Part shown: positions 39 to 41,287 of the stretch, piece after piece
Numbering within the stretch: position 1 is the stretch's first letter
Layout of the letters: every line of letters starts with the position of its first letter
DNA from: Candidatus Falkowbacteria bacterium
GTDB taxonomy: Bacteria; Patescibacteriota; Patescibacteriia; CAIXNZ01
Assembly (NCBI GenBank): GCA_963774955.1
Contig: CAVZGV010000005.1
Coordinates: forward strand, 30,495 to 94,494
Length of the DNA: 64,000 nt
Direction of reading: 5' to 3'
Position numbers and translations under genes: made by a program
Notes under the pieces: generated by a model
What the model was told of the DNA's origin: nothing
What the model saw: the letters and a program-made list of their open reading frames with translations, nothing else
Database searches by the model: none

Positions 39-722
39 TCAGACTTGTTTTTCCATGGACGTTACTTCGAACGCCCCCTTGTCACGATCAAATGCCACCA
101 ATAAAACTCTGGTACCGCTGGGTATTTCTTCGTTAGCTCCGGTAAAAGCCGGGTATTGCTGCAAATTGTCAAAATTATCGCGGACTCTGACAGTTCCGTT
201 CTTGCTGTCAATGGAATAAAGAGCTTCGCCTATCTGATTGACCAAATCTTCCTCCACATTGCAATAGGTGGAAGTTTTGGGCATTACCTTGGACACGATC
301 CGGGAGACAAAGCCCGTGACTGTGAAGCTGATAATCAAAGCCGCAAACATAGACAGCGGCAGAAAAAGCAAAGGGGTGCGTAAAAGCGGATGCAGTAAAG
401 AATTGAGAGTAAAGCCTGAGAAGCCCCAGACAAAGCAGAGAGTCATCAGGACAATGGATATAGGCACATGGCCAATACCCAAAACCGAAGTTGCTCTCCA
501 GAAAATACTGTCCTCGCTAGCCGAAGATTCAGCATCATGATCATGGTCAGCGTCATGGTCGGCGTCAGTATCAAGGTCATGGTCAAGATCATGATCAAAA
601 TCATGATCACCATCACCTGACAAGCCGAGTGTCTGAATCAGCAGAAACAGCAGTCCCCCGCAAAACGGGATCACAAAGACCAGATTCCACCATTCGAATA
701 ATAGTTTCGTTTCCATGATCAT
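39..722 (-). CDS. NfeD-like membrane protein with His/Asp-rich (DHD)n linker
   Basis: N-terminal hydrophobic helices, then a DGDHDFDHDLDHDLDTDADHDADHDHD tract. C-terminal ~60 aa (VRVRDNFDN...GTRVLLVAFDRDKGAFEV) resembles the NfeD OB-fold beta-barrel. Confidence 0.45.
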   Translation of the reverse strand: MIMETKLLFEWWNLVFVIPFCGGLLFLLIQTLGLSGDGDHDFDHDLDHDLDTDADHDADHDHDAESSASEDSIFWRATSVLGIGHVPISIVLMTLCFVWGFSGFTLNSLLHPLLRTPLLFLPLSMFAALIISFTVTGFVSRIVSKVMPKTSTYCNVEEDLVNQIGEALYSIDSKNGTVRVRDNFDNLQQYPAFTGANEEIPSGTRVLLVAFDRDKGAFEVTSMEKQV

Positions 723-728
723 ACCTCC

Positions 729-1121
729 TTAGCGATCATTCTTTTGAGTTGCCTGACTATCTTTATACCATCGATATCCGATTTCTATGGCCAGGAAAAT
801 GAATAAAGCAATGCAACCGCCCTGGAAACTGACATCGCTGGTAAAAAATAACAGCAAGCTTGCCAGAATCAGATAAAATACCCGTTCCGGGGTTTGACTG
901 AGACTCTTAATGAGCGGTTCAATTACCTGGCTGATTATCTTATAGCCCATAAAAACCAGGCCTAAAATAAACAGCATAAAAAGGAAAACTACTCCTATCT
1001 TGACCAATTGCTGATGTTCAGCCGAGACACCTTCCACCAGGAAGATGTTCATTAGCCGATTAGCCACTTCCAGCAGCCAATCGGTCAGTGACTTGAGTTG
1101 CTCAATTTTTTCTGCCCACAT
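729..1121 (-). CDS. hypothetical small membrane protein
   Basis: 130-aa ORF with 3-4 hydrophobic helices, immediately upstream of the NfeD-like gene. Confidence 0.4.
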   Translation of the reverse strand: MWAEKIEQLKSLTDWLLEVANRLMNIFLVEGVSAEHQQLVKIGVVFLFMLFILGLVFMGYKIISQVIEPLIKSLSQTPERVFYLILASLLLFFTSDVSFQGGCIALFIFLAIEIGYRWYKDSQATQKNDR

Positions 1122-1282
1122 TTTTTTGCCTCCTTTTCTGTAATTTTAGCTAAAATATAATTGTCAAAAAAACTATAAAATCCCCCTTTCAGGGGAACTT
1201 ATTACCTTAACATATTTACATCTTTTGTCAAGTAATTAGCTAAAAAAACCCCGCACTTCGAGTGGAAGTACGGGGTAAAATT

Positions 1283-2095
1283 TTAATCGTTTAGATAATG
1301 AGTTTTCTGACAATGAGGACATTCAGTGGTCGACAAATCCTCATTGCAGTAAGGGCACTGCTCTAGCCCTGAGGGAATTTTTTCTCCGCAATCAGGACAA
1401 GGCTCAAACAGCAATTTTTCATTGCAGCCGGGACAGGTATCCTGATCGATAAAAATTTCTGACTGACCGCACTTGGGGCAGTCATAGTGGACCAGAAGCT
1501 GGTCACACTGGGGACATTTATACTCCCCTTGAAAATCATCCGGTTCAGGATCAGTATCAATATACTGGTTACAGCGGGGACAGATCCAGAGGTCTGCATC
1601 ACAATACGGACAGTTGTCTTCGTATTGACTGACGAAAATCTGCCGGCCGCAATTGTGGCATTTGCTCACAGTTAACGGCTCCTGACATTCAGAGCAGACT
1701 TCAGAATCAGCCCAGATGTCTTTGCCGCAGTGCGGACAGGTCATGTTCCAAAAGCTTTTTTTGCAAATGGGACACATGTCCGAGTCGTCAGCATCAGGAT
1801 CTTCGCCAATTTCCTGCTGACAGCGCGGGCAAGTCCAGGTCTGATCTTCTTTTGTCATCTCCGGAACCGAATCTGGTGGGACAGAAACTCCTAAAGCAGA
1901 ATACTTCAGCTGATTTTCATAGCCCCTTCTATCATGACATGATCGGGAACCATGATTTTCAGAGCTGTTGAAATAATCATGTAAATAGCTGGCTACCTTG
2001 AGATACAACAGCAAGCCTAAAATAGTTATTATCGCCAACAGCCAAATACGATTTGTCCCGGCAATACCCAGATAATCCATAATTTCATTCAACAT
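1283..2095 (-). CDS. membrane-anchored multi-zinc-ribbon protein (~11 CxxC...CxxC units)
   Basis: One N-terminal TM helix, then a serial array of CPxC/CxxC pairs (CPRC, CPIC, CPHC, CSEC, CHNC, CPYC, CPRC, CPQC, CPKC, CPGC, CPDC, CPYC, CPHC) spaced like zinc ribbons. Confidence 0.6.
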   Translation of the reverse strand: MLNEIMDYLGIAGTNRIWLLAIITILGLLLYLKVASYLHDYFNSSENHGSRSCHDRRGYENQLKYSALGVSVPPDSVPEMTKEDQTWTCPRCQQEIGEDPDADDSDMCPICKKSFWNMTCPHCGKDIWADSEVCSECQEPLTVSKCHNCGRQIFVSQYEDNCPYCDADLWICPRCNQYIDTDPEPDDFQGEYKCPQCDQLLVHYDCPKCGQSEIFIDQDTCPGCNEKLLFEPCPDCGEKIPSGLEQCPYCNEDLSTTECPHCQKTHYLND

Positions 2096-2339
2096 CTTCT
2101 GCCTCCTTGGTTATTGTTTGTCAGATCTTATCAGACTTTATATCTTAACATTATTGTCTCCAAACGTCAACATCTTGCACTAGTAGTCACTCCTTGGTCT
2201 TCAACAATATCACCTTTTGTAATTTATACAAATTATCAAATACCAAACTTTTTATCTTGCGTTGTAAACTGACCCGACCAAGAGTATACTTACAAATAAT
2301 AAAGATAATCGACTTATTTAATTATTAAATACAAAAATT

Positions 2340-2588
2340 ATGGGAATTATTCTTTGGATCATCTTCGGGGGCTTGGTCGGCTGGATCGCCTCTATGATTA
2401 TGAAGACCAATGCCCAGCAAGGCCTGATTCTAAATATTATTATCGGTATTGTTGGCGCGGTTATAGGCGGTTTGATTATGAACTTGCTTGGTTTTGGCGG
2501 TGTTGGCGGTTTTACTTTATACGGCTTTTTAGTAGCTTTACTTGGAGCCATAGTTCTTATCGCCATTGTCAGGGCCATACGACGATAA
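2340..2588 (+). CDS. GlsB/YeaQ/YmgE family transglycosylase-associated membrane protein
   Basis: 82 aa, MGIILWIIFGGLVGWIASMIM...GIVGAVIGGLIMNLLGFGG is the typical Gly-rich two-helix signature of this family. Confidence 0.85.
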   Translation: MGIILWIIFGGLVGWIASMIMKTNAQQGLILNIIIGIVGAVIGGLIMNLLGFGGVGGFTLYGFLVALLGAIVLIAIVRAIRR

Positions 2589-2615
2589 AAGTAAACAAAC
2601 CGGATAAAACAAAAA

Positions 2616-3043: not shown

Positions 3044-3083
3044 AACAAAAAATCCCTCACCGACTCACAGAAAGGGATTTTTA
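3044..3083. terminator. bidirectional terminator downstream of groEL
   Basis: ATCCCT-cacc..-AGGGAT hairpin flanked by an A-run on one side and a T-run on the other. Confidence 0.5.
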
Positions 3084-4796: not shown

Positions 4797-4911
4797 TTAA
4801 TAATAAATAAAAAGTGTAAAGTGAGCTATAAGAGCTAAATGGGGATAGGATAATATGGGAATATGGGAAATTTTTCACTTTTACCCTTTTCCCCTATAGC
4901 TCTTTTAGCTC

Positions 4912-5205
4912 TTATTCCCCTATAACTGCCAAGATATCCTCTTCCCTTATAATCAACAAGTCCTTTTCACCAGGCAGTTCATCCGGAGAATATTTTTTAA
5001 AAATAACTTTGTCACCGACTTTGACTGACATTGGCGCTCTTTGACCGTTTTCTAAAAGTTTGCCGGATCCGATGGCCACCACTTCGCCCTTTTCCGGTTT
5101 TTCCTTATCAACCGTATCAGGCAAAATAATACCGGCCTTGGAAACTTCCTGACCATTGATGGGTTTGATTAGGACGTGATCGTTTAGAGGTTTGTAGTTT
5201 GGCAT
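4912..5205 (-). CDS. groES: co-chaperonin GroES
   Basis: 97 aa, LKPLNDHVLIKP...GEVVAIGSGK...VKVGDKVIFKKY matches GroES. It sits directly upstream of groEL. Confidence 0.9.
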   Translation of the reverse strand: MPNYKPLNDHVLIKPINGQEVSKAGIILPDTVDKEKPEKGEVVAIGSGKLLENGQRAPMSVKVGDKVIFKKYSPDELPGEKDLLIIREEDILAVIGE

Positions 5206-35667: not shown

Positions 35668-36096
35668 TTAATTTATCCGCAGCTTTAATTCCTTAACACA
35701 CAATTTCAAATAAGCCGCAGTTTTATAAGATCTTAGCTGATTCAGATTAACCCATGCATATTCACTGTGTTCCTTAGGGTTAACTTTAATATTTTTTTTA
35801 TCCGTCTTAGCCAGGAAAATTAAAGTGAAAAATTGTTTCTTCTTTTTTCTGTCGATGTTTGAATAACAATAAAAAAGCTTCGGATTCTTCAGCTTCAAAC
35901 CGGATTCTTCAAGCGCTTCCCGCACCACCCCATTTTCCGGGATTTCACCATCCTCAAGCGTTCCTCCGGGCAAATCCCACCGACCTTCCAAAAATACGCC
36001 TTTGGCTCTTTTTAATATCAAAAGCTTATTATTATTTATAAACGCAACATGGACAATAATTCCTTTATGCATATAATTGATAATAATTATTTTCAA
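35668..36096 (-). CDS. NUDIX hydrolase
   Basis: Nudix box [24 protein letters not shown]. Confidence 0.85.
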
Positions 36097-36172
36097 TTTT
36101 ATATTTTTATAATATCACACTTTTTAACTTTAAAATAATATCAGATTACTACTTTTCTGCTATAATACCTTT

Positions 36173-36676
36173 ATGAATAAACGCCTACAAAAACAAATTC
36201 TTAAAATGGTTGCCAAGGATCAGGCTATGCGCTTTTTCGGGGTTTGGAATCCCAGGATAGACCATAAAAATACCAATGCCTTAAAAAATATTATTAAAAA
36301 GTATGGCTGGCCTGATATTCCCTTAGTTGGTAAGAAAGCGAGCCTGGGCGCCTTTCTTTTGGCCCAGCATGCTGATAAAGATTTAAAATTTCAAAAGCTA
36401 TGCCTGAAAATAATTACTGAAAAATTTAAAGAGCATAAAATGGAGCCGCAAAGCGTTGCTTACTTAACTGACCGCGTTCTAGTAAATTCCGGACAAAAAC
36501 AAATCTACGGCACTCAATTTTATTTTAATAAAAAGACCAAAAAGTTTGGACCGCGTCCAATCAATGATCGAAAAAATCTTTTTAAGCGCCGTCGCCAAAT
36601 GAAACTTGGTTCATTTTGGGCAAACTACAAACTGCTGCTCAAAAGGCACAGGGAGATACAAATAAAAAAAAGGTAA
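36173..36676 (+). CDS. hypothetical protein
   Basis: 167-aa ORF. A TATAAT box sits 7 nt upstream of the ATG, suggesting a leaderless transcript. Confidence 0.4.
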   Translation: MNKRLQKQILKMVAKDQAMRFFGVWNPRIDHKNTNALKNIIKKYGWPDIPLVGKKASLGAFLLAQHADKDLKFQKLCLKIITEKFKEHKMEPQSVAYLTDRVLVNSGQKQIYGTQFYFNKKTKKFGPRPINDRKNLFKRRRQMKLGSFWANYKLLLKRHREIQIKKR

Positions 36677-36696
36677 ATCAATGGTTTACCCTTTTT

Positions 36697-36753
36697 AAAT
36701 TTACTTATTAAAGAACGAGCAGATTTTTTGCCACAGTCTTTGGCACCACGAAG
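36697..36753. repeat. ~55-bp imperfect direct repeat (copy 2), overlapping the 3' end of ORF 36701-36910
   Basis: aaatttacttattaaagaacgagcagattttttgccacagtctttggcaccacg. It encodes ..WCQRLWQKICSFFNK*. Confidence 0.6.
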
Positions 36754-36910
36754 GCTTGGGTTCTTCCTTTTCATCCGGGTCCTTGTCTTCATGACTTGAG
36801 CCACTGCCATAATAGCCCATGCGCTCGCGCCAGTGTGGCGCAGGATTTTCATTTACCCATCCGGTAATCGGATCATAATCCCTGGAGCAACCATCATCAA
36901 AATCACGCAT
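36701..36910 (-). CDS. small hypothetical protein (W/H/G-rich), last gene of the ATP-grasp operon
   Basis: 69-aa ORF, GC-richer, 36 nt downstream of the HExxH gene. Confidence 0.35.
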   Translation of the reverse strand: MRDFDDGCSRDYDPITGWVNENPAPHWRERMGYYGSGSSHEDKDPDEKEEPKPSWCQRLWQKICSFFNK

Positions 36911-36946
36911 GACGACACCTCCTTTTTAAAACTCTTAAAGACGCCG

Positions 36947-37603
36947 CTAAACCTTTGACCTGGTTTGGTCTGCCAATTTATCAACCAATTGATAAATATT
37001 TTTATTCTTCAGCCAGATATTTTTGATAGTTGTTCTCAACTGCGAATGTTCCTCATACCCTTTATCAGCACATTCCATTAAATTAAAAAAATCCTGATTC
37101 AAAATTTCGGTTAAAGATTCCTTGATGTCATAATATTGCTTCAAATTTAACTCCTTATTAAAGCCCTCACCAAAAGCATACCAGGTATAAAAATGCCATA
37201 ATTCATGCATAACCACCATTTTGGGCCGATCTGAATCTAAGCTGACAAAAAATAAATTATCTATCAATGAATAACCGCAACGGTCATTGGACGTTAGATA
37301 GGCGGTAATTTTATCTACCGGCAAGCTGATCTCAAAAATCTCATCAGCCCGTTTAAAAAATTGATTCTGAACTTTATCCCATTCAGTCTGGAATTTGGCC
37401 AGCTGGGCTTGAGGGTCAATTTTATTAATATCCAAATAATTTTTTATAAATTCCTGCAATAACACGTCATCCAACTCTTCCCCGTAAGTCTGCTGATAAA
37501 TAAAATGCTGACGAGAGGGTTTGCCGCCATGACCCAAAGATTTGGCAGCAATATGAAAATTGAGAATATCTTTTGATAAATTGTATTCAAATTGTATGGT
37601 CAT
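36947..37603 (-). CDS. HExxH-motif protein (putative zinc peptidase; candidate leader peptidase)
   Basis: ..VVMHELWHFYTWYAFGEG.. HExxH+E-like motif. A 6-nt gap to the upstream MTase gene suggests the same operon. Confidence 0.45.
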   Translation of the reverse strand: MTIQFEYNLSKDILNFHIAAKSLGHGGKPSRQHFIYQQTYGEELDDVLLQEFIKNYLDINKIDPQAQLAKFQTEWDKVQNQFFKRADEIFEISLPVDKITAYLTSNDRCGYSLIDNLFFVSLDSDRPKMVVMHELWHFYTWYAFGEGFNKELNLKQYYDIKESLTEILNQDFFNLMECADKGYEEHSQLRTTIKNIWLKNKNIYQLVDKLADQTRSKV

Positions 37604-37609
37604 AAAGAT

Positions 37610-38212
37610 TTACCTATTTTTTTGAGCAATCATTCTGACAACTCCATGTTGATGAGAATCTTCATAGCCTGCATGACCAGGATCAGCAACAACCAATTCT
37701 CTATAAAAAATTAAATCGTAATCACTAAACAAACTTTTAAGCTCTTCGGCTTCAAAGTAGGTCTTATTAGCATTATTTTGATATGAAGGATCTTTGGTCG
37801 TAAATGCGGCAATAATCACATAGCCGCCTGATTGTAACCCGTTTTTTATATTTTCAATTAAGTTGTATCCGTCCGTCTTTGGGAGAAACTGCAGAATATT
37901 AAACGCGTTAATGATGGCAAATTTATTTTTCTCAATTAAATAACTAGAAACATTGCCACAAATAGCCTTTATAGTTTTGAGCCCCGATTCCACGGACTTG
38001 TCTTTAAGCTTTTTTACTCCCTCCTGAGATTGATCAACGGCCGTAACCTTAAAGCCCTGTTTGGCCATAAATGCAGAGTCACGCCCCTGGCCGCAACCCA
38101 AGTCTAAAAACTCAGCCCCCGGCCTAACTTTTTTCCAAACCATGCCTAATAGTTGATTACGCTGATTACCCCAAACATCGACGGTTTTTTTATAAATTTT
38201 ATTGTAGTCCAT
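37610..38212 (-). CDS. class I SAM-dependent methyltransferase (TehB-like)
   Basis: Motif I FLDLGCGQGRDS, 200 aa, 4-nt gap to the upstream gene. Confidence 0.8.
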   Translation of the reverse strand: MDYNKIYKKTVDVWGNQRNQLLGMVWKKVRPGAEFLDLGCGQGRDSAFMAKQGFKVTAVDQSQEGVKKLKDKSVESGLKTIKAICGNVSSYLIEKNKFAIINAFNILQFLPKTDGYNLIENIKNGLQSGGYVIIAAFTTKDPSYQNNANKTYFEAEELKSLFSDYDLIFYRELVVADPGHAGYEDSHQHGVVRMIAQKNR

Positions 38213-38216
38213 AAAA

Positions 38217-38645
38217 TTAAAATCTATCTATTTTCCTTGGATCCATTCCAATTTCATTTTCAATTTCAGAATAAATCTCTTCTTTGCTTTTACCCCAATT
38301 CTGCCGCTCAAAATAGGTATCGTAAAATCCCCATTTTTCTTTACCGCCCAGCTCGCGGTATTTTTTTATTAATTTATAGGCCAATTTAAAATAATCCAAT
38401 CGTCCTACATTGATTAAAATATTAGCAGCATAATAATAATCGTCCCTATTTTCCAACGCCTCATTCTCAATTAAAAAATAAACGATTCTAGCTCTTTCTT
38501 CGCACTCACCTTTAAACACATAAAACGGCAATTTATCTTCAGCTTCCACCAATTTGGGGGTGCCTTGTTGTTTTATAATTTCCTGACGTCTTTGCTGATC
38601 AAATTCATGAAAATTTTTTAAAAGTGTTGAAATAATTTTAGTCAT
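38217..38645 (-). CDS. hypothetical protein within the graspetide operon
   Basis: 142-aa ORF, 55 nt downstream of the ATP-grasp gene. No recognisable family. Confidence 0.4.
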   Translation of the reverse strand: MTKIISTLLKNFHEFDQQRRQEIIKQQGTPKLVEAEDKLPFYVFKGECEERARIVYFLIENEALENRDDYYYAANILINVGRLDYFKLAYKLIKKYRELGGKEKWGFYDTYFERQNWGKSKEEIYSEIENEIGMDPRKIDRF

Positions 38646-38700
38646 ATATTTAAAATTAAAAAGGGATACTAAGCTTTGGCTTTTCTCCCTAAGTATACTT

Positions 38701-39663
38701 TCAGACTAGCAATTCGGCAATGGCCTGTGCGATCTGAAGTTCTGTTTTTAGTTGCACAAAATACCACTGCCCATTGGGATTAATCTCTAAAAAGATATAA
38801 TCCCCGTTCGGAGTGACAATCATGTCAATGCAGCCGAATTTCAAGCCAAGTGCTTTCATGTAGCCATGAATTTGTTCCTCAATCTGGACGGGCAAAATCA
38901 TCGGCTCCATTTTCACGTCAAAATCATTAAGCTGGGGCTTGCGGCGCCAATCCAAGGAAGTTGCCTCATCTTGTTGAGACAAGATTTTTACCGCGAATAT
39001 TTTTTCGCCTACCACTGTAATCCTAAGTTCATAAGCCTTAGGCACAATTTCCTGAAAAATTGACGGCGACATCTTTACGGAATCAATCTCTCTCATTTGT
39101 TCAGCTGTCACCAGATTTGTATAAATGACCCGGTTAAGCATGGGACTGGAAGCAAGTATTTTAACTATAATCCTGCCACCATGCTTGTCATAAAACTCAC
39201 GAACCTTTTCAGGATCTGAAGTAATACAGGTGCTTGGCACCATAAAACCATTTTTGACGGCTTGATCAAGTTGAAAAATTTTATTCTCAGCTATTTGTAT
39301 GGCCCAGGGATCGTTCAGCCATTTTTTATCACGACAAACACTCCAAATTGCCTGTCTTAAAATATGGAACTGACGATCAATGAACTGCCGGTGCTCCACG
39401 GGATTATAATTCAATAATTCCCTGGGCAGATGCGGCTTCATGTACCAGACAGCGGAAAATTCACTTAGGTCAAATGACTGACCGTCAATGACTAGTCCGA
39501 ACTTTTGCCTGCCATCAATAATTTCAAAATTCAAATACTCGCCAAGCAAGCATTTATCCTGCTTAAAAAGTTTTGCGGACGCACCAAGCTTTTCTAAGGC
39601 AGAAAAAACCGCTTGAAACGCTTTTACTTCATAAACGCCAGAGTTACCAATTGCTAAAATCAT
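38701..39663 (-). CDS. ATP-grasp ribosomal-peptide maturase, MdnC/MvdD (microviridin/graspetide) family
   Basis: 320 aa. ..SAVWYMKP.., ..ELRITVVGEKIFAVKILSQQDEATSLDWRR.., ..GCIDMIVTPNGDYIFLEINPNGQWYF..IAQAIAELLV are collinear with recalled MdnC motifs (SAVWYRR, ELRITIVGEQIFTAAI, YDWRK, AIDMIVTP..YIFLEINPVGEFF, ISQAIAEILV). GGAGG RBS 7 nt upstream. Confidence 0.8.
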   Translation of the reverse strand: MILAIGNSGVYEVKAFQAVFSALEKLGASAKLFKQDKCLLGEYLNFEIIDGRQKFGLVIDGQSFDLSEFSAVWYMKPHLPRELLNYNPVEHRQFIDRQFHILRQAIWSVCRDKKWLNDPWAIQIAENKIFQLDQAVKNGFMVPSTCITSDPEKVREFYDKHGGRIIVKILASSPMLNRVIYTNLVTAEQMREIDSVKMSPSIFQEIVPKAYELRITVVGEKIFAVKILSQQDEATSLDWRRKPQLNDFDVKMEPMILPVQIEEQIHGYMKALGLKFGCIDMIVTPNGDYIFLEINPNGQWYFVQLKTELQIAQAIAELLV

Positions 39664-39676
39664 CCGCTAACCTCCT

Positions 39677-39706
39677 ATTTAAAACAGGGGGCAAATATTT
39701 GCCCCC
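39677..39706 (-). terminator. intra-operon attenuator hairpin between the precursor and the ATP-grasp gene
   Basis: Perfect palindrome GGGGGCAAATATTTGCCCCC, followed on the minus strand by tgtttt. Confidence 0.5.
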
Positions 39707-39726
39707 TGGCTGGGTTGGAGCTGATC

Positions 39727-39825
39727 CTATGAAGCATCAGCACCGTCAATGTCATCCCAAGCGCCACTGGTTGTGGGGCTTACCGCTCCTTCACGCACTT
39801 CAAGAAACATGAGAATGAACGGCAT
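39727..39825 (-). CDS. graspetide precursor peptide (32 aa): MPFILMFLEVREGAVSPTTSGAWDDIDGADAS
   Basis: Translated by hand. An ATG lies 7 nt after GGAGGT, giving 32 codons before TAG. The leader PFILMFL resembles the microviridin PFFARFL recognition helix; the core has TTS and four Asp. Not in the ORF track (below the 60-aa cutoff). Confidence 0.6.
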   Translation of the reverse strand: MPFILMFLEVREGAVSPTTSGAWDDIDGADAS

Positions 39826-40048
39826 GGCAGGTACCTCCTTTCTTAGAATTTTAAAGACCTACATGTATCATAAAACATCAGTATAATACAGCAAGGAAAT
39901 TAAATCATAAAATTTGATAATATTTTGTAACAAAATTAATGTAAATCCTTTTAAACCATTAAAACACAGGTTTTAACTGAACAAAAAACTGTTAAAAATC
40001 ACTAACAAAAATATCCACAGCCCCTTGTAATTTCAACTGCCATTCATT

Positions 40049-40080
40049 GACAAAGTCGCTTATTTTTGATAATCTGAATC
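40049..40080 (+). promoter_or_regulatory. putative sigma70 promoter of the MFS gene
   Basis: TTGACA..(15-17 nt)..GATAAT/TAATCT, followed by an AAAGGAGAAG RBS. Confidence 0.4.
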
Positions 40081-40114
40081 ATTAACCAGTTCTTTAGACA
40101 AAGGAGAAGATATA

Positions 40115-41287
40115 ATGAAAAAATCAAAAACCATGGTAATCATCGGCCTTGTGATTATGGAGCTTTTGGCTAGCATTGATACCACCGGAGTTACGGTCAT
40201 GGTGCCGACTTTGCAAGCATATTTTAAAATCCCGCCGGAAATAGCCGGTTGGATTTTAATGGCCTATCTGATTCCCTTTTCTGTTTGCCTGGTGCCCATG
40301 GGCTATCTGGCTGACAGAATCGGCAAACCGGAAAAAGTCATTGTCTGGGGTATTTTAACTTTTGCCCTGGCTTCAGGGCTGTGCGGACTGGCAGTTAACG
40401 AATACATGCTGATCGCCTGCCGAATTGTCAAAGGCATGGCTGCGGCCGGCATGTTTGCCTGCGAATTTGCCATTATCCTTAAATACTGGCAGGAACCGCG
40501 ACGCATCGTAGAAATCATCATGATCGGTCTGGCAGTCGGCGTTTTAATCGGTCCCATCTGCGGCGGCTTATTTTCCAGTCCCGAAACCTGGCGTTACTTT
40601 TTTCTGATCGGAACAGTTTTAGCCCTGATAGGCTTTATCGCCTACCAATGGATTAAAAATCTGGAACCGATAAAACGCGAAGCAGACACCCTAACAGTCC
40701 AACCGCAAACCTTCAGCCAAAAAGCTAAACTGCTGATAAAAATCATGTTCTGGGGCATGATCCTTGATTTCATAATTTCAGCGGCCACCCAGGGCGCCAA
40801 TCTGCTTATCACTTTGCAGGTTCAAGAAAATCTGCACAAAACTCCGCTTTATAACGGCATGATTCTACTGGTAATCGCTCTGGGCATGATCCTGGCCAAT
40901 ACTTTGGGCCTAAGCAGTAAACTGTTTAAGGAAATCCGCTATGCAGTCATGGCCAGCGGATCCGCCTTTGCCCTAATGCTCGTTTTAACCGCTTTGCTGA
41001 CTGACTGGACAGGAATTTTGGCCTTTGGCTTTTACTTTATCATGGGTATAAGTCTGGGCATTATTCTGGCCACAGTCGAACTTATGGTTTTGACCCCATT
41101 GCCCACCCAACAACTGGCTCAAGGCAACGGCTGGATTGTCAGTTCCATGCAGGCCGGTTATGGTCTGGCTTCGGCCCTGATTCCCTGGCTGTTTTTAAGG
41201 ACAGGTATAACCATGGCCGCGTGCATTTTGGCCGGACTGGTTTACCTGGCTCTTGGTTCTTTCTTTATTTTCCAAAAACGAAAGTAA
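40115..41287 (+). CDS. MFS transporter (12 TM; DHA-like efflux), divergent from the graspetide operon
   Basis: 390 aa with 12 predicted helices and a ..GYLADRIGKPEK.. loop-2/3 motif. Confidence 0.85.
   Translation: MKKSKTMVIIGLVIMELLASIDTTGVTVMVPTLQAYFKIPPEIAGWILMAYLIPFSVCLVPMGYLADRIGKPEKVIVWGILTFALASGLCGLAVNEYMLIACRIVKGMAAAGMFACEFAIILKYWQEPRRIVEIIMIGLAVGVLIGPICGGLFSSPETWRYFFLIGTVLALIGFIAYQWIKNLEPIKREADTLTVQPQTFSQKAKLLIKIMFWGMILDFIISAATQGANLLITLQVQENLHKTPLYNGMILLVIALGMILANTLGLSSKLFKEIRYAVMASGSAFALMLVLTALLTDWTGILAFGFYFIMGISLGIILATVELMVLTPLPTQQLAQGNGWIVSSMQAGYGLASALIPWLFLRTGITMAACILAGLVYLALGSFFIFQKRK

Follow-up and report, generated by a model that had tools for sequence, protein, structure and literature searches.

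A 64,000-nucleotide stretch of a Candidatus Falkowbacteria bacterium genome (GenBank assembly GCA_963774955.1, contig CAVZGV010000005.1, positions 30,495 to 94,494 of the forward strand; hereafter the window) contains, next to a gene for an ATP-grasp ligase, a very short open reading frame (ORF) that very probably encodes the precursor of an omega-ester graspetide, to be modified by the adjacent ligase. The ORF lies on the minus strand and runs, in window positions, from an ATG at 39825-39823 to a TAG at 39729-39727, giving 33 codons including the stop and a product of 32 amino acids (aa), MPFILMFLEVREGAVSPTTSGAWDDIDGADAS; the first-pass annotation of this DNA had counted the same 33 codons between the same ends. 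This ATG is the sole start codon downstream of the in-frame stop at 39861-39859, and the gene reads on the minus strand as ...AAGGAGGTACCTGCC ATG CCG TTC ATT CTC ATG TTT CTT ... GCT TCA TAG. The Shine-Dalgarno sequence GGAGGT that the annotation had placed 7 nucleotides (nt) before the start can be read directly at 39833..39838 on the minus strand (39838-39833 in the direction of reading), with ACCTGCC as the spacer, and it is retained in the related locus L001. We assign the whole element (39727..39825, minus strand) as a graspetide precursor gene from its translation, a profile match and the pattern of substitutions among its homologs.

The length of such an ORF is no evidence on its own: 161 ORFs of at least 20 aa occur within 12 kb, and since chance ORFs of precursor size are this abundant, the case for a gene depends on context and conservation. 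We retrieved 80 loci around homologs of the ligase (referred to here by L numbers) and inspected the regions upstream for a precursor ORF. In L001-L012 and L015 a small ORF is present upstream of the ligase, its end lying 15-105 nt before the ligase gene, and the C-terminal 32 residues of these ORFs align to the window peptide without gaps. A sister-type peptide with an insertion of about ten residues occurs in the more distant L013, L014 and L016-L018. No close ligase homolog with upstream sequence available was found without the ORF (in L011 it is present, frameshifted), and a profile of the homologous peptides matched the precursor ORF at E = 7e-21; this was the only match in the 64-kb window, which holds no second copy of the precursor by this search. 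The L011 ORF is split at 4821..4932, where one frame gives MDNQNSIPFILFFRRI and another ...FFLEEYEGAESVTTCGTWDDIDAADGQ; it represents either an assembly error or a pseudogene.

The differences among these sequences are distributed very unevenly over the codons. Between the window and L001, whose ligases are 90% identical, the ORF differs at six nucleotides, all six of them third-position and synonymous; against L003, 15 of the differing codons are synonymous and 8 non-synonymous; and when all pairs of loci are pooled, codon position 3 has 1411 differences, position 1 has 865 and position 2 has 631. Six peptide residues are invariant (P2, L5, G13, G21, D27 and D30), P2 and L5 across 13 sequences, while T18, T19 and D25 are conserved at 90% or above and the leader residues F3, I4 and L8 at 70% or above, so that the compared loci share the motif PFILxFLE..GA...TTSGT[WY]xDIDxxD. 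Could the ORF nevertheless be a chance frame, its conservation being due to a non-coding DNA or RNA element in front of the ligase? The plentiful ORFs of similar size would allow for it, but nucleotide identity to the window is only 45-58% in the more distant loci (71% in L003 and 68% in L007) compared with 47-75% for the peptide, the differences are concentrated in third positions, and the precursor frame is the only one free of stops in 12 of 12 loci, each of the other five being stopped in at least one. A scan of 39400-40200 against Rfam at E values up to 1 also matched no RNA family. We regard this explanation as vanishingly improbable and, as far as sequence comparison can do so, already refuted.

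As judged from this comparison, the ORF is a real gene, as the first-pass annotation had claimed, and is under purifying selection and linked to the ligase. That annotation had proposed to look for conservation of the ORF rather than of the DNA, and this is the pattern found: homologous loci keep the frame and the amino acids while the nucleotide sequence diverges, and the opposite patterns that it had named as fatal, DNA kept without the frame or a ligase without the ORF, do not occur at the close homologs examined. The family also extends well beyond the retrieved loci. When 5.8 billion public proteins were searched with a profile of the family, 52 further peptide clusters of 32-70 aa emerged, all of them unnamed and none with a Pfam domain; all 52 show PFILxFLExxxGAxxxTTSGT[WY]xD[IV]DxxDxx, and several start directly with MPFIL as the window peptide does. 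The exact 32-aa peptide is among the proteins already in the public collection, where it has been called as a gene product without a name (P0241); the ORF is therefore "unlisted", as the annotation had it, only relative to a track of ORFs with a 60-aa cut-off.

The gene that follows (38701..39663, minus strand) encodes a protein of 320 aa, with its own Shine-Dalgarno sequence, AGGAGG, directly legible at 39671..39676 on the minus strand, 7 nt before the ATG at 39663. Over its full length the protein matches the NCBIfam maturases MvdC (E = 5.6e-63), SAV_5884 (E = 6.1e-63) and MvdD (E = 2.3e-59), the models concerned being TIGR04185, TIGR04187 and TIGR04184, and it can be aligned end to end with the solved structures of MdnB (5ig8, E = 8e-47) and MdnC (5ig9, E = 5e-45), as well as with AMdnB and CdnC. 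An ATP-grasp enzyme of the MvdC/MvdD superfamily thus stands next to the precursor gene, and by these alignments it represents a distinct subfamily of graspetide synthetases. The sequence clusters most closely related to it, more than 100 at 50-90% identity, are nearly all from metagenome-assembled genomes (MAGs) of Patescibacteria, the candidate phyla radiation (CPR), and the nearest named relative, at 90% identity, is that of L001, a Candidatus Parcubacteria MAG. The Paceibacterota locus L017 has a second ATP-grasp ligase gene (639..1631, minus strand) upstream of, and on the opposite strand to, a cassette of precursor, ligase and DUF6624 genes.

When the peptide is read in the context of characterized graspetides, a plausible course for its modification can be proposed. 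It shows the build of PFxxxFL leader and separate core that the annotation had described. The leader motif, P2-F-I-L-M-F-L8 (39802..39822, minus strand; PFILxFL in the family), is conserved, is spaced like PFFARFL of microviridin and, in its P2-F-I-L-M-F part, fits Phhx(1,2)h, the general leader signature of graspetides (PMC8939145). In microviridin biosynthesis PFFARFL adopts a helical form, binds to a hairpin in MdnB or MdnC and activates both enzymes, its Arg contacting MdnC (PMC7823629); by analogy, PFILMFL would be the leader recognition element, a short helix that docks on the downstream ligase and activates it. The predicted core, T18-T19-S20-G-A-W-D24-D25-I-D27-G-A-D30 (39736..39774, minus strand), is likewise conserved and places its hydroxyl donors (T18, T19 and S20) before its Asp acceptors (D24, D25, D27 and D30), in line with all characterized graspetides, where the nucleophiles precede the acidic residues (PMC7823629). 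The ligase would use ATP to activate the side chains of D25, D27 and D30, which would then be esterified by the preceding hydroxyls of the conserved T18 and T19, plus S20. This would produce two or three macrolactone rings within a core of about 13 residues, TTSGAWDDIDGAD, across the invariant Gly21. As the core has no Lys, lactams are not expected and all the links would be esters; the macrolactones may be nested in a hairpin-like manner, as in plesiocin and thuringinin. The point of leader removal may be marked by the pair G13-A14, which resembles a cleavage site of the GG/GA type. We infer leader binding, ester formation, the number of rings, the cleavage site and the biological role of the product alike.

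Precursor and ligase genes are separated by a hairpin, CAGGGGGCAAATATTTGCCCCCTG, followed by TTTT (39681..39708, minus strand; identified by folding and a terminator scan). Within it, GGGGGCAAA/TTTGCCCCC form a perfect palindrome, which the flanking CA/TG extends to a stem of 10 bp (7 G-C pairs) that closes on a 4-nt loop (39708..39685) and has a stability of about -20 kcal/mol. The hairpin starts 18 nt past the precursor stop codon, and after the TTTT come AAATAGGAGG and then 7 nt to the ligase ATG, so that the annotation was right both in its perfect stem-loop and in placing the next ribosome-binding site (RBS), AGGAGG at 39676-39671, behind it. The 63-nt spacer as a whole folds at -24.3 kcal/mol (z = -3.2 compared with shuffles), and the tract after the stem, TTTTAAAT, has four consecutive T only and passes a simple terminator scan. 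No repeat copy of the hairpin was found in the 64-kb window, and on account of its single occurrence there a mobile or dispersed element of the REP (repetitive extragenic palindromic) or MITE (miniature inverted-repeat transposable element) type was rejected. A strong hairpin (z < -2) is present in the spacer between precursor and ligase at 13 of 15 loci, with a mean z of -3.5, compared with a mean of -0.12 for control pieces of the same length taken from inside the ligase genes, 4% of which have z < -2. The homologous stems vary from 6 to 15 bp and their sequences are unrelated between loci; what is kept across the family is the position of a stable hairpin. In the L001 record the annotated ligase (1502..2569; GenBank MCX6744555.1, 351 aa) is 31 residues too long, its start reaching across the hairpin into the precursor ORF, which suggests that the precursor is unannotated there.

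A promoter-like site, TTTACA-17 nt-TATTAT (39917..39945, minus strand), putative and scoring 10 of 12 matches in a consensus scan, lies about 90 nt upstream of the precursor ATG, and its TATTAT hexamer is also present in L001. If the hairpin were an efficient terminator, or purely a stabilizer of the 3' end, the precursor would be monocistronic and the ligase operon would have a promoter of its own. The strong stem (10 bp, 7 G-C pairs) and the T-run that follows it are what one would expect in that case; such a run is found after the hairpin in L004, L005, L006, L010, L016, L017 and L018 as well as in the window, and is long and canonical in L004, L005, L006, L017 and L018. The distance from stem to ligase ATG in the window is only 21 nt, however, and with the RBS directly after the hairpin there is no room in it for a separate sigma-70-type promoter; a promoter scan found none between hairpin and ligase ATG, and the T-run is short in the window and missing in L003, L007, L008 and L015. 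We therefore consider an independent ligase promoter unlikely and take the ligase to be transcribed by read-through. As a leaky intrinsic terminator or a stabilizer of the 3' end, its most likely roles, the hairpin would end or pause most transcripts, or shield the 3' end of the short precursor mRNA. In either case there would be more mRNA for the precursor than for the enzyme, with the ligase operon still fed by read-through.

In lantibiotic and other ribosomally synthesized peptide operons, such as nisA-nisB, a stem-loop separates the precursor gene from the modification genes. Here, too, a GC-rich hairpin comes straight after the stop codon of the precursor and precedes the first enzyme gene, an arrangement that fits limited read-through with precursor transcript in excess; unlike those operons, about half of the graspetide-family loci compared here have no T-run after the hairpin. 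As far as we searched, the graspetide literature makes no mention of a hairpin between precursor and ligase.

The first-pass annotation had called the hairpin an attenuator, and in the classical, ribosome-coupled sense this term is not supported. A short ORF, a terminator-like hairpin and an operon behind them do make up a layout of the trp type, in which the ORF would be a regulatory leader peptide whose product is itself functionless. Such attenuators alternate between mutually exclusive terminator and antiterminator structures, whereas the single minimum-free-energy fold obtained here has one hairpin and no alternative antiterminator pairing; nor does the distance from stop codon to stem, which ranges from 5 to 36 nt across loci, allow a fixed geometry between ribosome and hairpin. 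The peptide, moreover, is conserved in amino acid sequence over its full length at deep divergence, bears the graspetide leader signature and has invariant Thr and Asp positions like those of a graspetide core. A functionless leader peptide is, on this evidence, very improbable.

Downstream of the ligase on the minus strand, and in the same directon, are genes for a 142-aa protein without a Pfam or NCBIfam match (orf142, 38217..38645), a TehB-like class I S-adenosylmethionine-dependent methyltransferase of 200 aa (37610..38212; Pfam TehB, E = 2.7e-21) and a gluzincin-type metallopeptidase of 218 aa with the residues H133-E-L-W-H137 and E162 (36947..37603). None of these three is conserved across the family. 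Homologs of orf142 immediately follow the ligase gene in L001 (88% identity) and L003 (54% identity); a relationship of orf142 to DUF6624 was considered and rejected by profile comparison. The methyltransferase gene sits exactly between the genes for orf142 and the peptidase and is absent from L001, where those two adjoin (3053..3079); by sequence, a tailoring gene has recently been gained or lost here. The methyltransferase is a candidate tailoring enzyme and would be an optional one. The peptidase would be the candidate protease for removal of the leader. Divergently oriented on the plus strand, upstream of the precursor, is a gene for a transporter of the major facilitator superfamily (MFS), 390 aa (40115..41287; Pfam MFS_1, E = 2.2e-38), a possible exporter; it is conserved in L001 only, so that its link to the graspetide system is weak. 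Ten further large ORFs from other parts of the window included neither a C39/PCAT exporter nor a second ATP-grasp enzyme, and the 13 ORFs scanned between 33.4 and 41.3 kb gave no GNAT match to Pfam. The GC content is 0.35-0.39 over 36000..40000, the graspetide locus, and 0.41-0.48 in the flanks, with their HisRS, MFS and peptidase genes, a difference that would fit an accessory island or one acquired horizontally.

Only one partner is conserved over the ligase clade, a DUF6624 protein, which is encoded at 18 of the 20 closest ligase loci and additionally at L047, L061 and L065. In the window its gene (36173..36676, plus strand; 167 aa; Pfam PF20329, E = 6.9e-20) is inverted and about 2 kb from the ligase gene. 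In other loci it nearly always follows closely behind the ligase gene in the same orientation, but in L001 (4045..4545) and L009 (5937..6515) it is on the opposite strand; in both the window and L001 it has been displaced by inserted genes. The invariant residues of the family are D16, Q65, H66, D100, R101 and R140, and a predicted model of high confidence (predicted local distance difference test score 95.7) is helical with a beta hairpin and gave no informative fold match. Close DUF6624 homologs (46-48% identity) come from DPANN archaea of the Woesearchaeota and Nanoarchaeota (P0152, P0197 and P0204), so that by sequence the family is common to both groups of ultra-small episymbionts. A viral-classed contig, L081 (IMG/VR UViG_3300029811_000049, 38.5 kb), has a hairpin at 1415..2597 together with genes for the precursor MKGIMPFILLFMVEYEGATCATTCGHFNSIDSHDYT and for a ligase with 54% identity to that of the window, and no DUF6624 gene within 3 kb downstream; it could represent cargo of a CPR phage or a misclassified contig. 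It is conceivable, though in our view rather doubtful, that precursor, ATP-grasp ligase and DUF6624 protein form an obligate three-part system, in which DUF6624 would either be a partner that the ligase needs or itself modify the TTSGTW...DIDxxD core as a new tailoring enzyme, and the 32-aa peptide a naturally minimal substrate used by genome-reduced CPR bacteria, and possibly by their viruses, in dealings with host cells.

Several observations weigh against the assignment of this locus to graspetide biosynthesis, or against parts of it. The Arg of PFFARFL has no conserved counterpart in this family, the position being variable. The ligase scores below the equivalog cut-off of every named NCBIfam maturase family, which makes it a distinct subfamily and its chemistry an assumption. 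The T-run in the window is only four T long, and about half of the homologous hairpins (among them L003, L007, L008 and L015) go without one. Finally, the genes for the peptidase, the methyltransferase and the MFS transporter are not kept across the family, so that little speaks for their involvement. We nevertheless hold the graspetide precursor to be very probably the correct description of the ORF, on the strength of its conserved sequence, its leader and core, and its neighboring ligase.

A sub-60-aa ORF that a length cut-off had hidden would thus be the substrate gene of a biosynthetic locus. The locus is a further member of a kind of graspetide system that was catalogued bioinformatically in 2022 and not characterized, and our literature search found no experimental work on any member of the precursor family. 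Beyond the literature that we found are the breadth of the precursor family, its naturally minimal 32-aa form, in which the leader motif begins at residue 2, and the conserved position of the hairpin, which as a family-wide element between precursor and ligase is a simple and testable regulatory feature. With one 32-aa peptide, one ligase and one DUF6624 protein, the locus also offers a compact test system, in which two questions from the literature could be addressed: the role of DUF6624 in graspetide biosynthesis and the use of graspetides to episymbiotic CPR bacteria.

The graspetide loci of CPR bacteria have been surveyed by Makarova et al. in 2022 (Biol Direct 17:7, PMC8939145), who distinguished two ATP-grasp branches, found an uncharacterized 'cluster 23' protein in all of the loci, and noted UbiE-like methyltransferases and zincin peptidases as frequent in Branch 2; they could identify no precursor at most loci of that branch, where ORF prediction might have missed it. 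The window locus resembles these in its CPR/Patescibacteria host and in its components (ATP-grasp, methyltransferase and zincin peptidase), and 'cluster 23', as we infer, may correspond to DUF6624. The closest published precursors are those of cluster1865, three near-identical sequences from Giovannonibacteria, ...LPFILGFLEYREGAMAPTTCGIITDIDAYDAA (PMC8939145). They align with the window peptide without a gap, at 63% identity over 32 residues, and by this similarity the window peptide belongs with them; unlike these precursors, which have 49-52 aa, it has no N-terminal extension, its leader motif beginning at residue 2. The precursor family is far wider in CPR/Patescibacteria than the three sequences published in 2022, and this breadth may help with the missing precursors of the Branch 2 loci.

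A second point of reference is the study by Carter et al. in 2026 (ACS Chem Biol 21:698, PMC13097080), in which DUF6624 was found to be frequent in graspetide groups 18, 20, 23 and 42 and was suggested to represent a class of biosynthetic enzyme as yet undiscovered. Group 42 of that study is made up of CPR loci (22 in all, many of them from candidate phyla) that combine a precursor and a graspetide synthetase with DUF6624, the latter co-occurring in 82%, and it is represented by the precursor ...KPLILDRLRQPIEDIYKGGEKAMEGFTTHGTPNDPDSGGTD (PMC13097080). This representative resembles the sister type of L016-L018, and it shares with the window peptide a P-h-I-L leader and the logic of a T-T-x-G-T...D-x-D core; DUF6624 (PF20329) co-occurs in the window too, albeit 2 kb off and on the opposite strand. 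In contrast to the L016-L018 type, the window peptide has no insertion of about ten residues between leader and core, and the ligases of the two types are only about 40% identical. The motif TTSGT does not appear in the part of the Carter et al. dataset that we examined.

A third system for comparison is that of microviridin (group 1), where MdnA is modified by MdnB and MdnC. The resemblance is considerable: the ligases are homologous, PFILMFL and PFFARFL have the same spacing, and the donors precede the acids. The core TTSGAWDDIDGAD is, however, not of the form TxKxPSDx(E/D)(E/D) and has no Lys, the locus has one ATP-grasp gene instead of two and no GNAT acetyltransferase among the ORFs scanned, the leader Arg is not conserved, and the host is a CPR bacterium instead of a cyanobacterium. 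With core motif, second ligase and acetyltransferase all missing, a microviridin system was rejected.

Plesiocin (group 2, TTxxxxEE) and thuringinin (group 3) are graspetides with ester links only. They differ from the window peptide in their leader motif and in their acceptors, which in the window are all Asp with the spacing DxDxxD. They share with it adjacent Thr donors, a turn containing Gly and a cluster of acidic acceptors, and by analogy this likeness suggests that a single ligase may here, too, form nested, hairpin-like macrolactones.

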